A stretch of DNA of 64,000 bases, from UHGV virus genome UHGV-1430452, one strand, 5' to 3'. The position numbers and the translations under genes were made by a program. Of this stretch, positions 305-58,312 are shown one piece after another. How positions within the stretch are numbered: position 1 is the first letter of the stretch; the number at the start of each line of letters is the position of its first letter. The stretch comes from a virus. A model generated the notes under the pieces. It saw nothing but the letters and a program-made list of their open reading frames with translations. It made no database searches and had not been told where the DNA came from.

Positions 305-3300
305 TTACTTCACTCCTTTCAAATACTTAGATACTGTCGATGTAGAAACTCCCATCTTCTTAGCAATCTGTTCAAGTGTATAGTTAGATGCAGCCATTGC
401 TTTAGCTCTACTAACTTGTGCACTGCTTAGACTGTTGGTTAGTCTAGGAGTTGCTCGTTCTCTAAGGTTATCGATGTCTGTTGTGTTAAGGATTCTCTTA
501 AGCTGATTCTCACTAACAGCACCAGCTTGTATAGCTTCCCATTCTTTGTCACTGATCTCTATGTTACGATCTCTTCTAGAGATAGAGCCAACCTCTTGTC
601 TATACTTATTCAACGCCTGTTGGCTAAGCTTTCTCAACGGTTCTCCTTTAAGCTCTTCACCATGTTCTTCAAGGTAAGCCTTCTTCTTAGCTGCTATCTC
701 GGAATTAGCTTTTCGTTGAGCAGTTCTTTCTTTAATCTTATTGAGATCTGACTTATCGACTCTCTCCATTAAAGACTTAACCTCATCTCTATACGCAGCC
801 TTAGCACTTGCTGTTGTTTCGATCTTTCCTGTGTTAGCCATAGCTAATCTAGCTTTGTTACCAAGAGCTTTCATCTCATTAGCGTAGTCCGCATAGATAA
901 GTTCCATAGGATGTCTAGCTTTAGATACTAATTTATAAGCATCATCAGTCTCAGCCATCTTAGTACTTTGCTGCATACGGGTTTTAGTACGATATGTAAT
1001 ATCACCAGCGGCATTAGTATAGGTTACTTTCCCAGTGACGGGGTCTTTTTTCTCAATAGGGTTATACCTTTCGTAAGCTGCCTTATCTTTGGGATCATAT
1101 TCAATCTTCTTGCCATCAGCTGTTCGCACGGTAATAAGACCGGTCTTCTTATCTCGTTTTCTATCGACATAATATAGATCGTCGGCCTTCTTCCAAAGCT
1201 TGGCTCCATCTGGTTTGGTGGGGTCATAATCTTTACTACCTGGGATGTTTATTTTATATGAGCCTTGTCTTTTCTCAACTGAATATTGTCCCTTTGATCT
1301 TGATAAAATGGTAGAAGCTCCACCTGATCTTTCATTTCCGTCATCGTCAATACGAACCTGATACTTCTTTTTAAGTGCAGCAATATTGTTATCTATCTCA
1401 CTTTGTTTGTAATCAAGATGATGTTTCTCAGCATCAATAACAACCATGCTATGCTTAACTGCTCTTGCCAATTCTTTTTCATCAGCTCCAGCTAAAGTCA
1501 TATCAGTAATAAGATTGGATACAACACCCATCTGAGTTCCAGTGTTTTTCATGATGGGATATGCTTTTCCATTACGATAATAACGAACATTACCATCTGC
1601 ATCCTTCTTAGCAACACCACCATATTCAACCTTAGGATCAAATCCTTCAAGATCTTCAAGAGGTCGCTTATTAAGAATTTTTACCTTTCCACCTGGATCA
1701 TTGGTAGGAATACACATAACAGTATCGCCATCAAAGTCTGCACCTGAAAGCTGATCAGCAATCTTATGATTAATGCCGACTGCATCGATACTTTGTTTGC
1801 CAATTATTTTATCTCCCAGTGGATTCTTATTGTTAACTGTTAAGATAGGAATTTCAAATCGTCCGCCATGAGGATAACGAATAAGAGCGAGCTTAGTTCC
1901 ACTCTCGTAGTTTGGAGCATATACTTCATTGTCTTTTAAAGAGTTTATTGGAATAATAACGTGGTACTTCTGTCCAGGTAACGCTGCTGCTTTTAAATGT
2001 ACAGCCGCTGCATCGCAGCTATCTGCAAATTTCTCAAGCATATGTTTCTTAATAGTAGGATTAGTAATAGACATATACTCATCAAACTCAGCAAACTTAT
2101 CTTTCTTAGCAAGATCTAACTGTTTCTTAGCTAGAGTCTGTGACTGTTTAGCCAGGAACTGAGATGGTAATGCGTCCTGCCAATCATCCCAATCTCCTTC
2201 ATCGGATCTCTTATTAATGAGACCTAATTTCTTCTTACCGGTCTTAGGATCGTCATACCAATACTGTCCACCCTTGTCAGCATCTTTTATAAGAGAGCCA
2301 AATGGATTGTCTGGATCATCTTTCTTAATATTTTTAAGAACCGTACTTGTTTTATCGCCTAAAGCTGGAGTACCTTTTTTCTTATTCGTATTAAATATGA
2401 CATCTACTCCATCAGGCATGTTGTCAGAATATACTGCCATACCTTTAAGATAATGAGTTCCATCTACAAGAATACGAACCTGTGAATATCGTGAATCACC
2501 GAGATCAAGATCTTTACATCCTCTGCGAAGTTCAATGATACCGTCCTTATCAATACCCTTAAATCCATCAGCACCGACATCGTCTGCATATCGAACCATT
2601 AAACGTTTTGAATCAAGACTTGCAGGATATGTAAACTTCTTCTGGAATGTATCTCCTCCGTCTATTGATTCATAATCGTTAATTGTCTTTACTCTATCGT
2701 AGTCGTAGATTTCTTTATGTGCCGTTCCTGGTTTACAAAGAACTTTCTGGATGGTCTGTTGTCCTTTTGTATTTATCTGAGGAATACCACCAGTATACAC
2801 AGGATAACCTTCTGCTTTCTGTAAGTAATCAAGAGCAGTATTCAATCGTTCTTTGGATATGCCAAGAGATTTTTCAACACCAGCTGTTACATCGATCATA
2901 CCTTTTTGATCAACATGCTCTCGCAGAAAATCTACAGTCTCCATTGCCTGATGCATACGGTCTTCAGACTTAGGATTAAGAAGAGACCTTACTGTGGACT
3001 CTGGAATACCCATTTCTCTACCGATGGCAGTTGCTCCAAGTCCATCTTCTTTTAAAGATTTAGCTCTAGCTACCTGTTGTAATCTTTCTTCATAACCAGC
3101 CCAACTAATCTGCCTTCTATATTCTGTAGTTGTTAAGTCCATGGATTTAGCTATCGCATTATCTCCGGTCCAGGTCTTACCATTATCATCAGTGTAAGTA
3201 AAACCGGCTTTCTTAAGCTCTTTAACTCTTGCGAGGAAATCGGAACCATGTTGGTATCTATCTTTTCCACTTCCATAAGGATACCTACCGCTGCGGCGAG

Positions 3301-3475
3301 GCATACCATAATGCATAAGTTCATCTTCATTCGCGCTGTCTAAGCGATCAGACCAACCAAAATAAGAAAGGATCTCGTCAGCAACGGTGAACTCTTCATC
3401 GCTGTGCTCAAGATCCTCTTCTCCAAATATAGATTCTACAAGTTCGTTCAACGGAGGTTTCTCTAAGAACTCCAT
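305..3475 (-). CDS. large RNA polymerase-like protein (1056 aa): beta-prime-type double-psi beta-barrel motif ADFDGD preceded by IRYPHGGRFEIP; C-terminal HTH
   Basis: ADFDGD hexamer identical to multisubunit RNAP beta-prime NADFDGD; upstream R-x-P-H...F-E-P resembles the beta-prime NRxPTLHR...FEP block; HTH TLEQIAKKMGVSTSTVSKYLKG at C-terminus; start overlaps upstream stop with in-frame GAGGAGG. Confidence 0.85.
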   Translation of the reverse strand: MEFLEKPPLNELVESIFGEEDLEHSDEEFTVADEILSYFGWSDRLDSANEDELMHYGMPRRSGRYPYGSGKDRYQHGSDFLARVKELKKAGFTYTDDNGKTWTGDNAIAKSMDLTTTEYRRQISWAGYEERLQQVARAKSLKEDGLGATAIGREMGIPESTVRSLLNPKSEDRMHQAMETVDFLREHVDQKGMIDVTAGVEKSLGISKERLNTALDYLQKAEGYPVYTGGIPQINTKGQQTIQKVLCKPGTAHKEIYDYDRVKTINDYESIDGGDTFQKKFTYPASLDSKRLMVRYADDVGADGFKGIDKDGIIELRRGCKDLDLGDSRYSQVRILVDGTHYLKGMAVYSDNMPDGVDVIFNTNKKKGTPALGDKTSTVLKNIKKDDPDNPFGSLIKDADKGGQYWYDDPKTGKKKLGLINKRSDEGDWDDWQDALPSQFLAKQSQTLAKKQLDLAKKDKFAEFDEYMSITNPTIKKHMLEKFADSCDAAAVHLKAAALPGQKYHVIIPINSLKDNEVYAPNYESGTKLALIRYPHGGRFEIPILTVNNKNPLGDKIIGKQSIDAVGINHKIADQLSGADFDGDTVMCIPTNDPGGKVKILNKRPLEDLEGFDPKVEYGGVAKKDADGNVRYYRNGKAYPIMKNTGTQMGVVSNLITDMTLAGADEKELARAVKHSMVVIDAEKHHLDYKQSEIDNNIAALKKKYQVRIDDDGNERSGGASTILSRSKGQYSVEKRQGSYKINIPGSKDYDPTKPDGAKLWKKADDLYYVDRKRDKKTGLITVRTADGKKIEYDPKDKAAYERYNPIEKKDPVTGKVTYTNAAGDITYRTKTRMQQSTKMAETDDAYKLVSKARHPMELIYADYANEMKALGNKARLAMANTGKIETTASAKAAYRDEVKSLMERVDKSDLNKIKERTAQRKANSEIAAKKKAYLEEHGEELKGEPLRKLSQQALNKYRQEVGSISRRDRNIEISDKEWEAIQAGAVSENQLKRILNTTDIDNLRERATPRLTNSLSSAQVSRAKAMAASNYTLEQIAKKMGVSTSTVSKYLKGVK

Positions 3476-4437: not shown

Positions 4438-4511
4438 TGGACCCTCTGGGATTCGAACCCAGGACCGTCCGGTTATGAGCCGGATGCTCTAACCAACTGA
4501 ACTAAAGGTCC
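4438..4511 (-). tRNA. tRNA-Met (anticodon CAT), 74 nt, CCA not encoded
   Basis: hand-folded cloverleaf: acceptor GGACCTT/AGGGTCC, D-loop AGTTGGTTA, anticodon stem TCCGG/CCGGA with loop CTCATAA, T-loop TTCGAAT. Confidence 0.85.
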
Positions 4512-4530
4512 GCCTATTATAAAGAAAAGA

Positions 4531-4733
4531 GAAAAATAGACTTTTCTCTCATAAAAGGGCAAGAAAATTTCGTGAATAGGGTGTGTACTTTTATATGTAA
4601 ATTTAGATAAGACCGGGAGCCATGAAGGACATCCCGGTACGTTCCAAAAATATAAATAGAAAGAAAATAGACCATCTCTCTATAAAAGGGTCAGAAATTT
4701 TCGTGAATAGGGTGTGTACTTTTTATATGTAAA
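4531..4733. repeat. two copies of a ~72-bp direct repeat (4531..4603 and 4663..4733), each containing a variant promoter-like motif (ctcataaaaggg...ttcgtgaata) and separated by a 7-bp-arm hairpin
   Basis: near-identical strings read directly; hairpin ACCGGGA-N13-TCCCGGT between copies. Confidence 0.8.
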
Positions 4734-7088: not shown

Positions 7089-7529
7089 TTAATCCATGTT
7101 CACTAATTCGTGAATTGAACATTTCAATGCTCTCGCCATTTTTATCAGATTACGAGAATTCGGAGTGGCTAGACCGTTTGTGTATTTACTTATCGTAACC
7201 TGAGTGACACCTATCTTTTCAGCTAATCGATCTTGTGTCATAGCTACGTTTCTCATTTTCCGATTTAGATTACGAGCAAATATCTTTCTCCATTCTTCTT
7301 CTGAAATGTCAATTGAATCTTCGTTGCCTGGATCATGAATCAGATAGGCTTGTCTATTAAGAAAATCATAAGCATACTTTTTACCGCCTTTGATCTTTAC
7401 CGTGATCTCTAATTGTGCACTAGGATACCAATCTAACATTTCTTCCGCTAGATTAGGATAATCCTGACAAAATGCTTCATATACGGGTTTCCAATATTTT
7501 TTACCGTCATTCATCTTAAGTCCCTCCAT
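7089..7529 (-). CDS. XRE-family HTH DNA-binding protein (146 aa)
   Basis: C-terminal HTH QDRLAEKIGVTQVTISKYTNG. Confidence 0.75.
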   Translation of the reverse strand: MEGLKMNDGKKYWKPVYEAFCQDYPNLAEEMLDWYPSAQLEITVKIKGGKKYAYDFLNRQAYLIHDPGNEDSIDISEEEWRKIFARNLNRKMRNVAMTQDRLAEKIGVTQVTISKYTNGLATPNSRNLIKMARALKCSIHELVNMD

Positions 7530-7977: not shown

Positions 7978-8262
7978 TTACACATAATCGTCCTCATCTA
8001 TGTCGTCTTCATACTCAAATTCATCATTATAATCGTCACTACCAGATCCATATAACTCTTTTAAAGCTTCTTGACGTTTGTTAATACTATCGATAGATGC
8101 TTTATATGTACTGATTCTGATAAACTCCGACATAGACATTCCGCTAAGTCTAGCTGCCCTCTCTATAGACGAATACTCCTCGTCATTGCATTTAGAGAAA
8201 ATAGGTTTTCTTCTCGCTCCAAACTTCAACGGCCTCCCACGTTTCTTTTTAACTTCTTCCAT
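7978..8262 (-). CDS. ribbon-helix-helix (CopG/MobC-like) DNA-binding protein with acidic tail
   Basis: KRGRPLKFGARRKPIFSKCNDEEYSSIERAARLSGMSMSEFIR resembles RHH family; paralogs at 9504 and 12151. Confidence 0.65.
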   Translation of the reverse strand: MEEVKKKRGRPLKFGARRKPIFSKCNDEEYSSIERAARLSGMSMSEFIRISTYKASIDSINKRQEALKELYGSGSDDYNDEFEYEDDIDEDDYV

Positions 8263-8823: not shown

Positions 8824-9207
8824 TTATTCCTCCTTATCTTTTTCACACCACATTCCAACAAGATCACTATACACTTCTAGCATTTTTACATCTGGTTTAT
8901 CGTGGGTTTTATTATATTCATCAAAATATTCATTGAATGCACAAATACACTTCCAAATATACATTTGTTTAGAATCATTTGTTTCATCCATTTCAGGTCT
9001 TTTTGCTTCCTCCTTGACATTCACTTTAGCCCAAGCGAAATAATGCTCCATATGCTCTCCAGGACCAAAGCCAACACAACGCGTGCTAACTGATAACGTA
9101 ACATCATCGGGTTTTACTTTGTAACCGTTTCGACAACAATAGTCTGCTATAATCTCACAGACATCATCTTCTGATAAATTAATAGTAATGTTCTTATTAA
9201 TATTCAT
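8824..9207 (-). CDS. hypothetical protein (127 aa)
   Basis: co-directional ORF. Confidence 0.65.
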   Translation of the reverse strand: MNINKNITINLSEDDVCEIIADYCCRNGYKVKPDDVTLSVSTRCVGFGPGEHMEHYFAWAKVNVKEEAKRPEMDETNDSKQMYIWKCICAFNEYFDEYNKTHDKPDVKMLEVYSDLVGMWCEKDKEE

Positions 9208-9221
9208 AACTCTAATCCTCC

Positions 9222-9482
9222 TTATCTCACATCAACGTTGCATCCAAAATTAATCAGATAATCGGTAGTACAACCCAACACATGAGACATTCTAGCGATA
9301 ACATCTATTCTAGGGGTACGTTTACATCTCATATAATTAGACATAGCCGACTCAGATATACCGATTAATTTAGCCAATTCTTTTTGATTAATGCCGCATA
9401 AGTCCATACGGTAATTAAGCTTTTCAACGAAGCGTTTTCGCCATTCAATTTCACTAATAGATTTTATAGGAGTCATTTCCAT
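9222..9482 (-). CDS. XRE/Cro-like HTH protein (86 aa)
   Basis: HTH QKELAKLIGISESAMSNYMRCKR. Confidence 0.7.
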   Translation of the reverse strand: MEMTPIKSISEIEWRKRFVEKLNYRMDLCGINQKELAKLIGISESAMSNYMRCKRTPRIDVIARMSHVLGCTTDYLINFGCNVDVR

Positions 9483-9503
9483 AAAAATATCAATCCTCCT
9501 TAC

Positions 9504-9674
9504 TTACTTCTCTTCTTGGTACATTCTCTCTAAAGCAGTTCTAAATACATCAGCAGCACTCATACCTGTTGACTTACGAACCTTCTCTAAAATATCTAAT
9601 TCTTTCCTATTAACACGAACTAGATATCTTGTATCTCTAGGATCTGCTATCGGTTTTCTACCTCTCTTCGCCAT
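9504..9674 (-). CDS. small RHH-type protein (56 aa), paralog of 12151..12354
   Basis: translation MAKRGRKPIADPRD...TGMSAADVFRTALERMY; missed by track (<60 aa). Confidence 0.6.
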   Translation of the reverse strand: MAKRGRKPIADPRDTRYLVRVNRKELDILEKVRKSTGMSAADVFRTALERMYQEEK

Positions 9675-9771
9675 ACATATCGCCTCCCTTCTATGACAGA
9701 TACCATTAATACGAAAAACAAAAGAAGAGCCTCAACTAAATATCAATCTAGTCAAAGCTCTCCCACATCAA

Positions 9772-9843
9772 TTAATCTTTAAGATAACCAACTTTATATA
9801 AGAATCTTCCTACAACTGCCCAAAACTTCTGTCTGAGTGTCAT
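9772..9843 (-). CDS. possible micro-ORF (23 aa, hydrophobic)
   Basis: AGGAGGG SD 6 nt upstream; promoter-like motif 32 nt upstream. Confidence 0.3.
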   Translation of the reverse strand: MTLRQKFWAVVGRFLYKVGYLKD

Positions 9844-9874
9844 ATAGATCCCTCCTTTCTATTTGGTTTCTTTT

Positions 9875-9902
9875 CATAATAGGCGTTGTTAATATCACGA
9901 AA
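9875..9902 (-). promoter_or_regulatory. conserved promoter-like motif copy
   Basis: cataataggcgttgttaatatcacgaa. Confidence 0.5.
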
Positions 9903-9928
9903 GAAAAAGAGAGAAGAAGTATATCTCA

Positions 9929-10052
9929 GCTACACGTTTCTCTGCATCCATTTAAAGACACATTCACTGGTCAGTTCCAGTCCCACTAATATACTTTGAT
10001 GCTACACGTTTCTCCATACATAAGTATGTTCACTGGTCAGTTCCAGTCCCAC
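9929..10052. repeat. tandem direct repeat (2 units, period ~72 bp): GCTACACGTTTCTC ... TTCACTGGTCAGTTCCAGTCCCAC
   Basis: both blocks recur exactly; each has the hairpin ACTGG-N6-CCAGT; lies between two promoter-like motifs. Confidence 0.8.
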
Positions 10053-10072
10053 ATCAACTTTTATTCTTCTCT

Positions 10073-10100
10073 CATAATATAAAATGTATTTTTCGCGAAT
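10073..10100 (-). promoter_or_regulatory. conserved promoter-like motif copy, directly after a terminator-like hairpin
   Basis: cataatataaaatgtatttttcgcgaa. Confidence 0.5.
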
Positions 10101-10134
10101 AAAAAGAAGAGGCTGTAAAAGCCCCTTACTTGTT

Positions 10135-10518
10135 TTACTTAATTTTAATTGAGTCGTATTCCTCCTTAAATTTATTAAGCTTTTCCGTAAGTTCTTTTAA
10201 CTCCTCTTCATATCTTTGTTTTACTATTAATGACACTTCGGAATTGTGTTTGTCACATCCTTCGATTTTAGAGACTCGATAAGCTATCTTTCTGTTCAGT
10301 GTTCCTATAGCTTCTTCAAGAGCACCTTCTTTTACCACATCTCTCACGAACTCTATAGTTTCAGTGTTATTCTTTATCTGTATATGATTCTTACATATAA
10401 AGAACGTTACCAATCCTATAGAAACACATGAGACACCGGCAATTATTTTGCCATTGTTGTCCATAACCACTTCTTTGAAAGACCTCTTTCCTTTCTCTTT
10501 AACATCGTGCTTCTTCAT
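10135..10518 (-). CDS. membrane protein (127 aa)
   Basis: TM segment IIAGVSCVSIGLVTFFIC. Confidence 0.65.
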   Translation of the reverse strand: MKKHDVKEKGKRSFKEVVMDNNGKIIAGVSCVSIGLVTFFICKNHIQIKNNTETIEFVRDVVKEGALEEAIGTLNRKIAYRVSKIEGCDKHNSEVSLIVKQRYEEELKELTEKLNKFKEEYDSIKIK

Positions 10519-10551
10519 ATCAAATACCTCCTTTAGAAATTAATAGTTTTT

Positions 10552-10577
10552 CATAAAGGGGTATGTAATTTACGCGA
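10552..10577 (-). promoter_or_regulatory. conserved promoter-like motif copy
   Basis: cataaaggggtatgtaatttacgcga. Confidence 0.55.
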
Positions 10578-10595
10578 TCACAAAAACCTCAAATA

Positions 10596-10856
10596 TCAAT
10601 CCTCACTCTCTTTTTCTTCAAACATATCTGGTCTAGCGTATAAAGCTGCTTCAACCTCTTCTTCAGTCATTAGTGGTTTAATAGAACATCTGTCAAAATC
10701 CTGGTCATTAAATCTTACAACCATACCTTTTATCCCTTCATTCTGAGCGTGGATTGCTACAAGATCCATACAGGTTCTGAAAGTCCTCTTATCCACCGAC
10801 AATCCAGCTTTTACTTCTACGTTAACTTCTCCGATAATATTCTTTTTACTTTCCAT
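10596..10856 (-). CDS. hypothetical protein (86 aa)
   Basis: co-directional ORF; C-terminal ESED tail encodes downstream SD. Confidence 0.65.
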   Translation of the reverse strand: MESKKNIIGEVNVEVKAGLSVDKRTFRTCMDLVAIHAQNEGIKGMVVRFNDQDFDRCSIKPLMTEEEVEAALYARPDMFEEKESED

Positions 10857-10859
10857 AAT

Positions 10860-11150
10860 TCAATCCTCCTTCGTTTTATCTGCCATATCTCGAATAAGCA
10901 CAATCTCATTGATATCATCCTCAATACGACGATAAATGCTATCAAATTTTTCCTGATAACGATACATGTCTTGCAAATAGAAACTATGTATACGACTGTC
11001 TCGCTTACCGAAATTGACGATAACAGTTATGTATAAACCATCAAATTGGATATTAATTGGTATATCATTCGCGCACCCAAGATCTCGTAACATCATTAAT
11101 GCGGTAGTTACGTTAGTTATCATGTTGGTTTCATCGTTATAAAACTTCAT
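10860..11150 (-). CDS. hypothetical protein (96 aa)
   Basis: co-directional ORF, coupled junction. Confidence 0.65.
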   Translation of the reverse strand: MKFYNDETNMITNVTTALMMLRDLGCANDIPINIQFDGLYITVIVNFGKRDSRIHSFYLQDMYRYQEKFDSIYRRIEDDINEIVLIRDMADKTKED

Positions 11151-11966: not shown

Positions 11967-12167
11967 TCATTCCTCCTTACTTCTTCTAACTTCCATTTCT
12001 AACCCAGATTGTATCCAACATCTTCTACATTTACTCTCATCATAGCCAGTAACACCACAGTTACAGCGCTCAGATGATTGTAAATCATAATCGTATGGAC
12101 AATTAAACTCGACTAATAAATCGAGCATCGTTTCTTTCTGATTTTCATTATCAAATATCATTTTCAT
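11967..12167 (-). CDS. small Cys-containing protein (66 aa)
   Basis: co-directional ORF; start overlaps upstream stop. Confidence 0.6.
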   Translation of the reverse strand: MKMIFDNENQKETMLDLLVEFNCPYDYDLQSSERCNCGVTGYDESKCRRCWIQSGLEMEVRRSKEE

Positions 12168-12354
12168 CGTTTAACACACCTCGCTCCGATTCCTTCTCAT
12201 ATAACTTCTCCAAAGCCACTCTAAAAACATCGGCCTGTCCCATACCAGTCATCTTGCAGCAATCCTCTAGCATTTTATTTTCTTTATCATTTATACGTAT
12301 CATGTAATGTTTCTTCCTCGGGTCTTTACTATAAGGTCTCCCTCGTCTGCCCAT
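12151..12354 (-). CDS. RHH-type DNA-binding protein (67 aa), paralog of 9504..9674
   Basis: GRRGRPYSKDPRK...TGMGQADVFRVALEKLY. Confidence 0.65.
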   Translation of the reverse strand: MGRRGRPYSKDPRKKHYMIRINDKENKMLEDCCKMTGMGQADVFRVALEKLYEKESERGVLNDENDI

Positions 12355-25966: not shown

Positions 25967-27535
25967 CTATTTAGCCAAGCCCCTTTCGTTTAGTGCATCC
26001 TCAACTGCGGAATATCGATCTGAGTTAAGTTGCTCTAATAAGCACTCTAGCGGATCGGTGTTATTACTAAGCACCATATTGGTAATAATCGGACTAAATC
26101 CACTTACTAAAGCAACTCCTAGATCGTTCTCTTTTACTGGGATGGTTCCTGTTCTGCTACAAATGTTCCAGAATATCAATCTAGGAAGTTTATAGCCGTA
26201 CTGAGAGTAACGATCTGATATCGTATTAAACAGTGTTTTACTCGGTCTGATATTGCTCCATCTTGAACCTCCTTCGCAACTAGCACAGCTATCAAATTCC
26301 ATATCTGATAAGATAAGTATGTTTTTAGGAATGTCGTTCTGTGACATGTTATTGTTGATTGCTGTTTTGAGAATAAGTTCAAATACAGCTTCGATGTTTG
26401 TGTTAGCCACCTCGTTGTATCTCCTGGCAATTTCGATCTTTTCTCTCAAAGATTCTCCGTTACTAAGATCTACTAAACGAGGATTCATGCTGAATGTAAT
26501 ATATTTGTCTCTGAATTCACCAGAACTTCTTTCAGAAAAATATATTGCAAGAGCATTGGCTACCTCTAAAGCTGTTACACTTGTTCCGCCGACAGGACAG
26601 TCCATACTACCCGATCCGTCCGCAACGCAAATTGTGTTACCGTCTCCGTTTACATAATCGGGAAGTGCTTTCCACAATTCTTCAAGTGTAATGTCATCTT
26701 TACCTTTGAGTTTATTCCCGTACCAAAATTCACCCCGATCAAAGTATTTATGTACAATATCATGCGGGAATAGTACACCAGCATTGATTTTCGTCTCGCC
26801 TTTCTGCAAACTCGCTAAGTAACTACTTCTCCTTTCCTCATCGTTCTTCATAAACGCATTACCATATATAATATTGGCTCTTGATGGAACCGCAGAATAA
26901 TCAATCTTTGACCATTCTTTCTTACACATACTAACTTCCACAACTTTTAAATATGCACGAAGATCCGAAAGCATTTTACGATAGGATTTCTCGTTAATAA
27001 ATAACTTCTGAATCATAAGACGTGCTAGTCGTTTTGTCTCTTTAGACGAAGTGTTTGCAGACGGCATCCATTTAGCTAATAAAGAAATAGGCTCTCCTAG
27101 AGATCTCTTCCTTATATCACTTGTCAACTGTGTAGATACAATTGATACAACGTAGTCTGAAACGTCAGTGTCTAATAAACACCATAAATCATCCCATCTA
27201 CCGTATTCCGGAACCAACGGAATGATTGCCTTTGATATATCGGCATGTTTTTCGGATAGATACTTAAGACAATATCTGAATAATCTTCTTTCTCCGAGAC
27301 CTTCTCGTACATCTCTGGCATAGAACAACCACTTGATAGCAAGCTGTTTGTTTTCGTAGAATGTCTTTACAAACTTGTCTACGATTTCTCCCTCGTCCAT
27401 ATTTCGCATGGATGTTACTGAAAAGTTGATGTCAAGAAGTTCTTTACCAGTAGTACGGTAACCAACTGCTCCATTTTCAGTAAGGCTTGTGTTGAATTCA
27501 TCATTGATTGTTTCTTTCAGATTGTTCATAAACAT
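25967..27535 (-). CDS. vWA-domain protein with MIDAS motif (522 aa); possibly TROVE/Ro60-like or DUF2828-type
   Basis: ICVADGSGSM is a DxSxS MIDAS motif; helical N-terminal region; family assignment tentative. Confidence 0.7.
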   Translation of the reverse strand: MFMNNLKETINDEFNTSLTENGAVGYRTTGKELLDINFSVTSMRNMDEGEIVDKFVKTFYENKQLAIKWLFYARDVREGLGERRLFRYCLKYLSEKHADISKAIIPLVPEYGRWDDLWCLLDTDVSDYVVSIVSTQLTSDIRKRSLGEPISLLAKWMPSANTSSKETKRLARLMIQKLFINEKSYRKMLSDLRAYLKVVEVSMCKKEWSKIDYSAVPSRANIIYGNAFMKNDEERRSSYLASLQKGETKINAGVLFPHDIVHKYFDRGEFWYGNKLKGKDDITLEELWKALPDYVNGDGNTICVADGSGSMDCPVGGTSVTALEVANALAIYFSERSSGEFRDKYITFSMNPRLVDLSNGESLREKIEIARRYNEVANTNIEAVFELILKTAINNNMSQNDIPKNILILSDMEFDSCASCEGGSRWSNIRPSKTLFNTISDRYSQYGYKLPRLIFWNICSRTGTIPVKENDLGVALVSGFSPIITNMVLSNNTDPLECLLEQLNSDRYSAVEDALNERGLAK

Positions 27536-27585
27536 AGTTTTTCTCCTTTCTTACAAGACGGTTTTTAATCCCTTTGTTTTAAATT

Positions 27586-27740
27586 TGCTGTTACCGCCTT
27601 AGGTCAAGATGCTTCATTCTTCTTAATTGCCAACATTAAAAATTGCTGTTAGCATCTTAAAAAAGAAAAGAGAGTAGCTGTTACAAGATACTATAATTCG
27701 CTCATCCAATTGTTTTAATTAGTTGCTGTTAGTATCTTTA
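27586..27740. repeat. four copies of TTGCTGTTA(C/G)NATCTT-like repeat in the 5' leader of the vWA gene
   Basis: copies near 27586, 27641, 27673, 27721. Confidence 0.6.
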
Positions 27741-27759
27741 TTTAACTACTACTCTCTCT

Positions 27760-27784
27760 CATAATAGGTGTTGTAAATTTCGCG
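27760..27784 (-). promoter_or_regulatory. conserved promoter-like motif copy, ~225 nt upstream of vWA gene start
   Basis: cataataggtgttgtaaatttcgcg. Confidence 0.55.
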
Positions 27785-47957: not shown

Positions 47958-48029
47958 AGAAACAGTGTAGGACTCGAACCCACAACCTACAGATATAAGT
48001 CTGTTGCTCTACCAATTGAGCTAACTGTT
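47958..48029 (-). tRNA. tRNA with atypical anticodon loop, probable anticodon TAT (Ile)
   Basis: acceptor AAACAGT/ACTGTTT, D-arm GCTC-AATTGGTA-GAGC, T-loop TTCGAGT; anticodon stem ACAG/CTGT with loop containing CTTATAT (6 or 8 nt by hand). Confidence 0.6.
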
Positions 48030-48034
48030 TCTTC

Positions 48035-50479: not shown

Positions 50480-50648
50480 TCCTTTAATTGGTTTTTGATA
50501 AAAATAAAAAGAGAATACAATGACTTCAGGGTCGGCCCAACGAAAACCGTTGCCCGGTGGGTAGCATGTTTTATTACGTTATTACGTGCCGCTACGCCTT
50601 CGTGTCTCACCACTGGATTTCCACCAGTATCTATCCATTGCTTTCTCT
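50480..50648 (-). ncRNA. candidate structured 5' leader / cis-regulatory RNA (~165 nt, GC-rich) between promoter motif and start of 50249..50479
   Basis: hairpins ACTGG-N7-CCAGT and CAACG-N5-CGTTG, followed by U-rich tract just upstream of the SD. Confidence 0.35.
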
Positions 50649-50675
50649 CATAATAGGTGATGTAATTTTCGCGAA
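50649..50675 (-). promoter_or_regulatory. conserved promoter-like motif copy (consensus match)
   Basis: cataataggtgatgtaattttcgcgaa. Confidence 0.55.
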
Positions 50676-54452: not shown

Positions 54453-54478
54453 CATAATAGGCGTTGTTTTAGTCGCGA
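54453..54478 (-). promoter_or_regulatory. conserved promoter-like motif copy
   Basis: cataataggcgttgttttagtcgcga. Confidence 0.55.
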
Positions 54479-56052: not shown

Positions 56053-56649
56053 ATGACAATAGGACAAAAAATAAAAGAATTACGCAATCAACTTAATATG
56101 TCGGTGGATGATCTTGCTGTGAAACTGGGTAAGAACCGTGCGACTATCTACCGCTATGAACGAGGAGATATCGAGAACCTCCCTCTCGATGTACTAGAAC
56201 CATTAGCAAATGCTCTTGAGACCACACCTGGTTATTTAATGGGATGGGAAGAAACTACGAAAAAGAAAGAGCCTTCAATTATCGATGAAGTTACCATGGG
56301 TGACGTTTTTAAAGCGTTACGTCTAGGAAGTAATTTATCGATAGAGGAATTTTCGCATGAGATTGGATTATCTGCCCAAGACATAAGCAATTATGAAGCA
56401 GGAAAGACTCCTATACCTGTAAATATAATTAATCTTGTTGCTGATTTCTTTGGCATATCAATAGCGGAAATAGTTAAGGCACACAAAAACAGCGAAAATA
56501 GAACGCCTTCTGGTTTCGAAATGAAAAAGGAACGATTTGAACGTTTTAAAGTTTGGAATAAAGAGTTTGGACGAATACATTTTACTGATGAAGAAATCAA
56601 TAAAATAATGGAATATACAAGGTTCTTACTTAGCCAAAGAAGACAGTAA
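56053..56649 (+). CDS. XRE-family transcriptional regulator with two HTH domains (198 aa), CI-like
   Basis: HTHs LNMSVDDLAVKLGKNRATIYRYERG and LSIEEFSHEIGLSAQDISNYEAG; SD AAAGGAG. Confidence 0.8.
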   Translation: MTIGQKIKELRNQLNMSVDDLAVKLGKNRATIYRYERGDIENLPLDVLEPLANALETTPGYLMGWEETTKKKEPSIIDEVTMGDVFKALRLGSNLSIEEFSHEIGLSAQDISNYEAGKTPIPVNIINLVADFFGISIAEIVKAHKNSENRTPSGFEMKKERFERFKVWNKEFGRIHFTDEEINKIMEYTRFLLSQRRQ

Positions 56650-56734
56650 GTCTACATAGGTTTACTCTATTTAAAGGAGGTGATGCCTGAATTCAGTTCA
56701 TCGTAGAATTTACATCAAAGGAAAGGTGGAACCA

Positions 56735-58312
56735 ATGACAACGTTTGATATGAACAACGCTGTAGACAATGCGTTCGGTATGGACGTATATGCTATCTAT
56801 CTTCGGAAAAGTCGAGCCGATGTAGAAGCAGAAAAACTTGGAGAAGGAGAAACACTAGCAAGGCATAGAAAGATACTAACAGAACTTGCTGCTAGAAAAG
56901 GATTGTATATCGGTAAGATTTACGAGGAAATTGTATCTGGTGAAACAATCGAAGCTAGACCTGAAATACAAAAACTGATAGAAGATTGTTATAAAGGGAA
57001 ATATAGAGGAATCCTAATAGTAGAAGTTACTCGTCTATCTCGTGGTAATCAAGGAGACGCTCAAAAAATACTCGACTGTCTCAAATATTCGAATAGAAAC
57101 AATGGTGTATTAGTTATCACTCCTACTAAGACTTATGACGTTGCACACAGCCAAGAAGACGAAGAATATATGGAGTTTGAATTGTTTATGTCTCGTCGAG
57201 AATATAAGATGATTCAAAAGCGTATGGATCGTGGCCGTAAACAAGCAGTCGTAGAAGGAAACTTCATGGGTAGTTACCGTCCCTATGGATATGACATCTT
57301 AAAAACCAAGACCGGACGAACACTTATACCGAATGAAGATGAAGCTCCTATCGTGAAAATGATTTACGAATGGACAGTTAACGATAATTTATCTCCTTTC
57401 AAGATAGCTGAGCGTTTAACTAATATGGGTGTTCCTACTTATTATGGTGAGAAGGATTGGTCTAAAGAAACAGTTAAAACCATTTTGACGAATCAGACAT
57501 ACATGGGTAAAGTTCGTTGGAATGATCGAATGACTGTTAAGACTATGGTCGACGGAGAACTTAAAGCTACACGACCTCGTTCAAATCATTCCGATCACTT
57601 CATGCTATATGATGGAAAACATATGAAACACGCACTCGTCGACGAAGAAACATTCAAAGCAGCCTCCTCTCGCTTTCATAACGATAGGACAAGATCAAAT
57701 CTAAAACTTGTTAATCCTCTTGCAGGACTTCTATTTTGTAAGAAATGTGGTAAATCTATGGGTTATCAATCATATAGACATAAGAAAAACGGACCAATGG
57801 ATCGATACAATCATAGACAGTCTGCTAATGGATGCAAGGTTAAGTCAGCAGTTGCTGAGGATGTTATAAAAGCTGTTATACATGCTTTGAAACTTTATAT
57901 AGAAGATTTCGAATTTAAGTTAGACAACACTCCAGATGTTGACGAAAATTCAATCAATACGCAGCTCGAAGCTTTACAAAAAGAAATACGAAAATCCGAA
58001 CGAAAACTTGCTAAGCTATTCGATTCTTGGGAAGATGAGAAGATAACAGATAATGAATTTGTTCAAAGGAAAGCCGTCCATAATCAGAAGATAGAAAATA
58101 TAAAGAGGCAAATGGAAGAACTCGAATATTCGATACCAGAAAGAGAAGAATATGAGGATAAAATAATATTGCTGTCTGAAGCACTTGTCGCTATCACAGA
58201 CGAATCGCTTGACGCAGATATTAAGAACGAGTATCTTAAAAGAATCATTGATAGAATAGAGTTTAGTAGAGAGAATAACTCAGAGTTTATACTAGATATA
58301 GACTTATGCTAA
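56735..58312 (+). CDS. large serine recombinase (phage integrase)
   Basis: N-terminal YAIYLRKSRAD catalytic-Ser motif, zinc ribbon CKKCGKS...C, C-terminal coiled coil; start moved to ATG with SD AAAGGTGGA. Confidence 0.85.
   Translation: MTTFDMNNAVDNAFGMDVYAIYLRKSRADVEAEKLGEGETLARHRKILTELAARKGLYIGKIYEEIVSGETIEARPEIQKLIEDCYKGKYRGILIVEVTRLSRGNQGDAQKILDCLKYSNRNNGVLVITPTKTYDVAHSQEDEEYMEFELFMSRREYKMIQKRMDRGRKQAVVEGNFMGSYRPYGYDILKTKTGRTLIPNEDEAPIVKMIYEWTVNDNLSPFKIAERLTNMGVPTYYGEKDWSKETVKTILTNQTYMGKVRWNDRMTVKTMVDGELKATRPRSNHSDHFMLYDGKHMKHALVDEETFKAASSRFHNDRTRSNLKLVNPLAGLLFCKKCGKSMGYQSYRHKKNGPMDRYNHRQSANGCKVKSAVAEDVIKAVIHALKLYIEDFEFKLDNTPDVDENSINTQLEALQKEIRKSERKLAKLFDSWEDEKITDNEFVQRKAVHNQKIENIKRQMEELEYSIPEREEYEDKIILLSEALVAITDESLDADIKNEYLKRIIDRIEFSRENNSEFILDIDLC

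Follow-up and report, generated by a model that had tools for sequence, protein, structure and literature searches.

Nucleotides 9929-10100 of the viral genome UHGV-1430452 hold two copies each of two sequence boxes and lie between two promoter motifs with no evident gene for a protein, which raises the question of whether this repeat works as DNA, for instance as a binding array for proteins, or as RNA. We examined it within the 64,000-nt stretch of DNA that was analysed as a whole (hereafter, the window) and in related phage sequences, and concluded that the repeat is very probably the gene for a structured non-coding RNA. The RNA belongs to an uncatalogued family, in which two tandem three-way junctions lie inside a closing stem that doubles as a terminator; we found no description of it in the literature.

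The repeat and its fold

The initial annotation had described tandem 72-bp direct repeats with a conserved hairpin. Two copies of each box were confirmed where it had placed them, and all four copies are exact:

9929-9942 and 10001-10014: 14-nt box (GCTACACGTTTCTC), copies spaced by 72 nt
9963-9986 and 10029-10052: 24-nt box (TTCACTGGTCAGTTCCAGTCCCAC), copies spaced by 66 nt

The hairpin ACTGG-N6-CCAGT is also present, located within the 24-nt box. With up to three mismatches allowed, the 24-mer matched the 64 kb only at its two known sites (shuffle expectation, 0.00), and the 14-mer, with up to two mismatches, again only at its two known sites (shuffle expectation, 0.30; two matches were reached in 2 of 100 shuffles). 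The uniform 72-bp period, however, did not hold, since the period is 72 nt for one box and 66 nt for the other, and the spacers are unequal. The sequences between and around the boxes are unlike in content and length (14 versus 20 nt), and the two units measure 62 and 76 nt. Because of this difference in the inter-box sequence, Tandem Repeats Finder made no report at the region. Exact blocks with unrelated spacers gave the first hint of a functional repeat and not one produced by slippage. That the region has no plausible open reading frame (ORF) was borne out: the only ones, of 37 and 50 aa on the plus strand, are spurious, and the sole minus-strand AUG opens a 5-codon frame (AUG-UGG-GAC-UGG-AAC-UGA) without a ribosome-binding site (RBS), the AUG being lost in two homologs (loci L133 and L134).

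Relatives were obtained from pattern scans of the IMG/VR and JGI/ENA metagenomes and from look-ups starting from homologs of c0, a small protein encoded beside the repeat. We observed the same arrangement on gut-type viral contigs of 20-90 kb, and the repeat proved to be conserved, with 18 distinct RNAs across 34 loci. Over the RNA, one contig, OHES01000478.1 (L139), does not differ from the window; three loci (L159, L172 and L234) were added by loose viral scans, which otherwise gave mostly chance matches. A scan of the genome collection with a loose pattern returned chance matches only, none of which passed the structural regular expression or the covariance model. As for the copy number of the repeat, which the initial annotation had proposed to compare, the covariance model found exactly two domains per locus and no other copy.

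In the minus-strand RNA, a closing stem, P0, surrounds two homologous three-way-junction domains, a and b. All units could be parsed into one plan: P1, U-GGG, P2, a variable P3 hairpin, (A/G)AACGU-N-N-A and the G closing P1, the domain junction element being (A/G)AACGUNNA. Invariant in each domain are a U-G closing pair followed by GGG, a 5-bp P2 with GG/CC at its top and the loop AACUGA, and the junction. The elements of the RNA in the window, with the coordinates of both domains verified, are:

10064..10073, minus strand: P0 5′ arm (GAGAGAAGAA), perfect 10-bp complement of 9909-9918
9996..10057, minus strand: domain a, covariance model match of 70.7 bits at 9998-10055
10051-10057/9996-10002, minus strand: P1a, 7 bp
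10048-10050, minus strand: GGG of domain a
10043-10047/10032-10036, minus strand: P2a, loop AACUGA at 10037-10042
10012-10031, minus strand: P3a region
10003-10011, minus strand: junction of domain a (AAACGUGUA)
9919..9994, minus strand: domain b, covariance model match of 65.4 bits at 9926-9989
9985-9994, minus strand: 5′ strand of P1b, paired with 9927-9930 and 9919-9924; AG bulge at 9925-9926
9982-9984, minus strand: GGG of domain b
9977-9981/9966-9970, minus strand: P2b, loop AACUGA at 9971-9976
9940-9965, minus strand: P3b region
9931-9939, minus strand: junction of domain b (AAACGUGUA)
9909..9918, minus strand: P0 3′ arm (UUCUUCUCUC), paired with 10064-10073

The P1 of domain b consists of 4-5 bp, the AG bulge and then an invariant GUAUAU/AUAUAC. 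The P3 hairpin was present in 26 of 26 units, with 3-7 bp, unrelated sequences, a GNRA loop in several cases, and flanks of GAA/GAG, UUA/GAG or GA-C/G-G. The minimum free energy fold of the transcript 10073..9898 reached -44.8 kcal/mol and its helices match the comparative model, which has an energy of -41.5 kcal/mol on the same transcript (-43.6 when enforced).

The evidence for this fold comes from the substitutions among the relatives. In L001, for example, ACUGG-AACUGA-CCAGU becomes UACGG-AACUGA-CCGUA and the spacer becomes UCC-GAAA-GGA. RNAalifold, applied to 13 full-length homologs, recovered P1a, P2a, P3a and P2b with 14 pairs changed on both sides; the P1a columns of this alignment showed CG/UA, AU/GC and UA/CG exchanges, and the inner P1b pairs were exchanged between homologs as UAGU/GCUG, UGUU/GGCG, UGAAU/GUUCG and UGGU/GCCG. 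The complementarity of P0 was kept in all 13 aligned homologs by matched changes, including GAGAAAAGA/UCUUUUCU and UGAGAGA/UCUCUCA. In a curated alignment of 18 distinct units, spliced to equal length (P1, GGG, P2, the outer 3 bp of P3, junction and P1, with the P3 boundaries set by folding), 252 of 252 cells were standard pairs and 11 of the 14 pairs had changes on both sides; when the partner was slid by 1-3 columns as a control, pairing fell to 28-43%. An independent alignment of 30 distinct units by the covariance model was 100% paired in P1, P2 and the pair within the junction, in which positions 1 and 8 alternate between A-U and G-C; the lower score of P3 was due solely to a one-register shift in three lineages. 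Few structured non-coding RNAs are known from phages, most of them lacking an explanation, and comparative support as clean as this, with multiple compensatory changes in every helix, is unusual.

G-U pairs occupied 53 of the 252 cells (21%), and the columns of the plus strand would pair in only 79% (A-C mismatches). Therefore, the signal belongs to a minus-strand RNA only, which argues against a DNA cruciform or operator. The orientation implied in the initial annotation, namely downstream of the motif at 10073 and hence on the minus strand, was correct by the same compensatory changes and G-U cells.

These data bear directly on the other suggestion made for the repeat, that it is a DNA operator or iteron array for the nearby ribbon-helix-helix (RHH) and helix-turn-helix (HTH) proteins, regulating the two flanking promoters. 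Two exact repeats indeed lie between two promoters, and RHH and HTH genes are found within 1 kb downstream. However, substitutions in P1, in the outer pairs of P2 and throughout P3 leave the strands complementary, so that it is the pairing that is kept (compensatory in the 11 of 14 pairs mentioned above), the G-U pairs make the signal strand-specific, and the spacing between the boxes varies from 10 to 20 nt across units yet the hairpin is formed every time. The RHH and HTH genes, moreover, are not conserved neighbours of the repeat, and we see no support for the proposed link to them. We consider a DNA array very remote. The alternative proposal of a repeated small RNA was right in part: the product is an RNA, five helices of which are kept by compensatory substitutions in 18 homologs, but not two separate small RNAs. 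The repeats are two domains within the common closing stem of one transcript of ~170 nt.

Domains a and b were also compared within each of the 18 variants: the two have the same P2 in 16 of them and the same P3 in 6, and the lone loop variant, AACAGA (L159), occurs in both domains. The junction of domain b is always AAACGUGUA; that of domain a is GAACGU(U/A)CA in 10 of 18 variants. From these comparisons one may argue for an ongoing homogenisation of two domains that would yet not be fully equivalent.

The transcription unit and its proposed mode of action

Nearly all ORFs of the window, its GC skew and all local genes are on the minus strand. In this direction, the locus consists of:

10135, minus strand: stop of the 127-aa gene c0
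10127..10107, minus strand: intrinsic terminator of the upstream gene, 5′ of the RNA promoter motif
10070..10100, minus strand: phage promoter-like motif (AUUCGCGAAAAAUACAUUUUAUAUUAUGAGA), directly after the 10127..10107 terminator, heading the RNA
9919-10057, minus strand: the two repeat units
9898..9908, minus strand: U-rich tail (UUUUUCUUUCG) directly after P0, the presumed termination point, running into the next promoter motif
9872..9902, minus strand: second promoter-like motif (UUUCGUGAUAUUAACAACGCCUAUUAUGAAA), which bounds the RNA, lies outside it and serves the downstream 23-aa ORF
9843..9772, minus strand: 23-aa ORF with a strong RBS
9764..9723, minus strand: terminator after the 23-aa ORF
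9504-9674, minus strand: RHH gene

Thus an ORF-less unit of ~170 nt lies between the promoter motif at 10070-10100 and the U-run at 9898-9908. Both flanking promoter motifs named in the initial annotation (10070-10100 and 9872-9902) are genuine members of a family of 13 minus-strand sites in the window, with the ~30-nt motif (A)TTCGCGAAAWTTACA-N-CCTATTATGAGA; the T of TTATGA falls at 54457, 53528, 53044, 51006, 50653, 48040, 27764, 24152, 20987, 10556, 10077, 9879 and 4554. These sites head mRNAs, both tRNAs and ORF-less units, usually right after an intrinsic terminator, and the RNA is preceded by the same motif in every homolog. Because the spacing from TTCGCG to TATTAT is 14 nt, which is not sigma-70-like, and because the window carries the gene (305-3475, minus strand) for a single-subunit RNA polymerase of the YonO type with an HTH at its C terminus, we infer that the motif is a promoter of the phage polymerase, with a probable start at the conserved GAGA. 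The tRNA at 48031 has its mature 5′ end only 2 nt beyond the motif, as a start at GAGA would allow. A U-run follows the 3′ arm of P0 in every homolog, and the design of a leader pairing with a 3′ arm that is followed by a U-run was seen at three other promoters of the window.

We propose that the locus works as follows. The minus strand would be transcribed from the phage-specific promoter, starting probably at the G after TATTAT near 10073 and ending at the U-run near 9900, to give an RNA of ~165-176 nt. Its first ~10 nt would pair with the last ~10 nt before the U-run to form P0, which would close and protect the RNA and at the same time provide the stem of the terminator. The two three-way-junction domains would present the invariant GGG, AACUGA and AACGU at a fixed geometry, leaving P3 free to vary. 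The RNA would then accumulate as a stable, discrete molecule and act in trans, as a bivalent platform or decoy. Since two equivalent domains carry the same invariant elements, it is suggested that a partner would bind them as a dimer or in two copies, with c0 or a host factor as the likeliest candidate. To a stand-alone structured RNA acting in trans as a binding platform or decoy we give about an even chance.

The main rival is a cis-acting attenuator, i.e. a tandem-aptamer riboswitch in which the two domains bind a small ligand, their folding locks P0, and P0 with the U-run terminates transcription ahead of the downstream genes. The RNA directly follows a promoter, the P0 terminator stem forms only if the interior folds, and aptamers typically combine invariant nucleotides at a junction with a peripheral arm that is free. 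Tandem riboswitches such as that for glycine likewise have two junction-type domains after a promoter, conserved junction nucleotides, variable arms and a final terminator. Immediately after the RNA of the L004 clade come a deoxynucleoside monophosphate (dNMP)-kinase-like gene and a ribonucleotide reductase (RNR) gene, with no promoter between. The gene after the RNA is, however, not conserved: it is the 23-aa ORF in the window and L151, c0 in L001, L142, L150 and L264-L283, and the dNMP-kinase-like gene with RNR in the L004 clade. At least nine lineages (window, L001, L133, L142, L150, L151, L264, L266 and L268) have a full promoter behind the RNA, making the next gene independent of read-through, and in half of the loci c0 is upstream and not downstream of the RNA. 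The RNA is thus independent of any particular downstream gene. No Rfam riboswitch model matches it, and its terminator stem, unlike that of the glycine type, encloses the aptamer-like domains and does not compete with them. With a downstream gene that varies and, often, a second promoter behind the RNA, a classical riboswitch is unlikely, and we rate the cis-acting attenuator as improbable.

The neighbouring protein and the distribution of the module

When the ORFs within 4 kb of the RNA were clustered, one family was recurrent, c0. In the window it is encoded by the following gene:

10135..10518, minus strand: c0 gene, 127 aa; N-terminal transmembrane (TM) helix and C-terminal helical hairpin; conserved neighbour of the RNA

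In most of the loci that were found from the RNA, c0 adjoins it, being immediately upstream in some phages (window, L004, L133 and L284) and immediately downstream in others (L001, L142, L150 and L264-L283), where P0 and the U-run, followed by a promoter, lie between the RNA and c0. A profile search with c0 gave 254 clusters; contigs were fetched for eight of these, and in 8 of 8 such look-ups starting from the protein the RNA was within ~100 nt. The protein matched no Pfam or PHROG family. In its AlphaFold (AF2) model, the N terminus forms a TM helix and the C terminus, with good confidence, a helical hairpin, for which Foldseek returned generic helical hairpins only (all E > 0.6), with no significant match in the PDB. 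As a linked gene, c0 offers a concrete experimental handle; that it is the partner of the RNA is doubtful in our estimate. Another small TM protein, c38, is found beside the RNA in L005, L130 and L135, and was rejected as a linked partner: its homologs occur in RNA-less loci.

RNA anti-CRISPRs and pseudo-ToxI are decoys of a host immune nuclease or effector. By the same logic, our RNA could serve as an anti-defence or antitoxin RNA, i.e. a decoy that neutralises c0, as in type III toxin-antitoxin (TA) systems, or a host immune nuclease or effector. The antitoxin RNAs of type III TA systems (ToxI, CptI and TenpI) and the pseudo-ToxI of phages are also tandem RNA units beside a protein gene, and are likewise found on or used by phages; the terminator that they have between RNA and gene has a counterpart here in arrangement A, in which the tandem RNA units are succeeded by a terminator, a promoter and then the protein gene. 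The finding that c0 was never without the RNA (8 of 8), together with the occurrence of the RNA without c0 in L005, L130, L135 and L134, amounts to the asymmetry that a toxin and its antitoxin should show, and the locus is accessory, being missing from the nearest relatives. However, c0 has no Pfam match, and its predicted form, a helical hairpin anchored in the membrane, is not that of an endoribonuclease of the ToxN, AbiQ or CptN type. The units, too, are unlike the toxin-processed head-to-tail repeats of ~34-45 nt in those systems: there are exactly two, they are 62-76-nt three-way junctions with distinct P1 stems, and P0 encloses both in one closed fold. The gene order flips between phages, with a promoter for each gene, and the result on c0 without the RNA comes from eight look-ups in one clade. 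We judge an anti-defence or antitoxin role rather unlikely. More specific still, and a long shot, would be a two-component module of RNA and c0, in which the bivalent RNA controls a membrane-anchored protein that is not a nuclease (a type III-like TA or exclusion switch), or else junction pockets that serve as an aptamer sponge for a host immune or signalling molecule.

Complementarity to mRNAs offers another way of acting in trans: in a base-pairing small RNA, host or phage mRNAs would be recognised by the invariant single-stranded AACUGA and AAACGUGUA, acting as seeds. It would suit such a function that the unit stands alone, ends in a terminator and has invariant unpaired stretches. Nevertheless, the 14-nt box has no complement elsewhere in the 64-kb window with up to two mismatches, and predicted duplexes of the RNA with c0 mRNAs were no better than those with shuffled mRNAs. 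The seeds would have only 6-9 nt and are partly buried in junctions, and duplicated identical domains are unusual for small RNAs of the seed type. We regard base pairing as highly improbable.

A number of observations count against a stand-alone RNA with c0 as its partner, or reduce the strength of the data behind it. All the sequences come from one phage clade, in which many substitutions are inherited and not independent, and the covariation of P1 in the curated alignment is in part due to the joint treatment of domains a and b, whose P1 sequences differ. The ends and the stability of the transcript are deduced from motifs alone, and a sigma-70-like start would fall ~6 nt into the 5′ arm of P0 and shorten it. 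In the L004 clade, where no promoter intervenes before the dNMP-kinase/RNR operon, the P0/U-run terminator must be read through, and this arrangement suits a cis-acting leader equally well. As regards c0, four lineages (L005, L130, L135 and L134) have the RNA without it, the case for a partnership is one of linkage, the helical-hairpin fold is a generic one, and the C-terminal domain could, judging from the model, be extracellular.

The RNA locus is an accessory module, found in some relatives and missing from others, a pattern expected of host-interaction or anti-defence functions. A blastn search of GenBank phages with nucleotides 9000-11000 gave no match. By RNA polymerase, the closest GenBank entries are MT835495.1, an unannotated phage from human faeces (79% aa identity), and the Faecalibacterium phage FP_oengus (43%); the covariance model found no copy of the RNA anywhere in MT835495.1 nor in the scanned 16-kb part of FP_oengus, and MT835495.1 has no significant homolog of c0. 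Since these phages belong to a clade related to the Faecalibacterium phage Oengus, the host is likely a major health-associated gut bacterium.

In a clade of ~61-kb phages (L004, L130, L135, L148 and others), the RNA cassette lies between the gene for a small TM protein and the dNMP-kinase-like gene with a class II-like RNR. In the RNA-less relative L280, the dNMP-kinase/RNR genes directly follow the upstream gene; because the same genes occur there without the RNA, the cassette of the L004 clade looks inserted. The searches also returned GC-rich CRISPR-like arrays at the metagenome loci L138, L143 and L146/L147, with repeats that contain GGAACTGACC (for example, GTTGCCGACGTTGGAACTGACCTGATCGATGGACAC) and are otherwise unrelated; most likely, these surfaced only since the search pattern required the 10-mer GGAACTGACC.

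Known RNAs and other elements of the window

We compared the RNA with known families and motifs. At gathering thresholds, Rfam 15 found only two tRNAs in the window; matches in 9650-10200 at E ≤ 10 were noise, and E ≤ 0.5 over the whole window added nothing. ARAGORN and the Rfam tRNA model found tRNAs only at 4438-4511 and 47958-48031, with no tRNA-like element at the RNA. Several identities or contacts were considered and rejected. A resemblance to loop B of the hairpin ribozyme (AGAAAC ... GUAUAUUA) was dismissed: instead of a helix-4 hairpin, the intervening sequence is the covarying 3′ strand of P1a, and the pairing partner of GUAUAU is AUAUAC, in P1b. There is no hammerhead core, a CUGAUGA being absent from the junctions. 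Pairing of the loop L2 with the junction J3/1 (CUGA with UCAG/GUAG) is disfavoured by L159, which has AACAGA in both loops and an unchanged junction. Kissing of the two ACGU junctions was also set aside, as the double change of A..U to G..C in domain a fits a pair within the junction and not pairing between a and b.

The pRNA of the Bacillus phage phi29 is, like this RNA, a stand-alone phage RNA of ~120-170 nt with a three-way junction and a structure conserved over sequence. It differs from the RNA described here in that the latter has two tandem junction domains and no mutually complementary pair of loops for ring formation, and resides in a genome of more than 64 kb that is related to the Faecalibacterium phage Oengus and is not phi29-like. 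Y RNAs and YrlA, which are bound by Ro60 and occur also in phages, likewise have a long stem formed by their 5′ and 3′ ends, and one protein of the window is an 'RNA-binding protein' according to PHROGs (DUF2828/DUF7788). No Rfam model of this kind matches our RNA, however, and the DUF2828/DUF7788 protein, which has no sequence match to solved Ro60 structures, is encoded 16 kb away with an RNA candidate of its own beside it. The put sites of HK022 and the nut sites of lambda (boxA-boxB) are promoter-proximal, too, with a conserved hairpin and a linear box in two copies ahead of terminators. In contrast to them, the RNA has closed P0 and P1 stems, its own terminator and only one locus per genome. 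By analogy, the RNA would work most like the protein-binding or decoy RNAs of phages and the type III antitoxins, yet it does not qualify as a member of either group.

Several RNAs of this phage share one cassette design, the leader at the promoter pairing with the arm of the terminator, and this design could help in finding further phage RNAs. A second ORF-less cassette lies at 27659-27760 (minus strand); its leader GAGAGAGAGUAG pairs with CUACUCUCU, a U-run follows, and the fold has a z score of -4.8. After it, two further hairpins are found at 27536-27660 (minus strand), and all three carry UAACAGCAA after the 5′ arm. The cassette and the hairpins, for which there is no Rfam match, are directly upstream of the DUF2828/DUF7788 gene (25967-27535), with which the cassette may form an RNA-protein pair.

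A third ORF-less cassette of ~150 nt (50501-50649, minus strand) follows the promoter at 50653 and is closed by GAGAGAA.GCAAUG/CAUUGU.UUCUCUC with a U-run. It contains a hairpin with the P2 stem (ACUGG/CCAGU) and a stretch, GAGACACG...GCGUAGC, that is reminiscent of the 14-nt box; neither the covariance model nor Rfam matched the cassette. At ~4515-4554 (minus strand), after the promoter at 4554, the leader hairpin GAGAGAAAAG-UCUA-UUUUUCUCU with a U-run makes an 'empty' cassette, and is followed by a TATAAT box and a tRNA-Met (4511..4438). The other tRNA (47958-48031, minus strand) starts 2 nt after a promoter motif and scores 62 bits with the Rfam model; ARAGORN assigns it no anticodon, and it may be a suppressor or a tRNA with an unusual loop.

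Downstream of the RNA, the 23-aa ORF (9772-9843, minus strand) encodes a small amphipathic peptide, MTLRQKFWAVVGRFLYKVGYLKD, and is equipped with the RBS AAAGGAGG and with a promoter motif and a terminator of its own. Its leader, from promoter to RBS, also follows the RNA in the human-gut contig L151, and the downstream RHH gene of the window is present in L151 and L234. That gene (9504-9674) is one of three in the early region, all on the minus strand, for paralogous small RHH proteins (MobC/NikA/DUF6290-like), the others being at 12151-12354 and 7978-8262; Xre-type HTH proteins are encoded next to them, at 9222-9482 and 7089-7529. The only plus-strand block of the window, 56053-58312, encodes a double-HTH repressor-like protein and a large serine recombinase/integrase. 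This block forms a lysogeny module, and because of it we consider that the phage is probably temperate.

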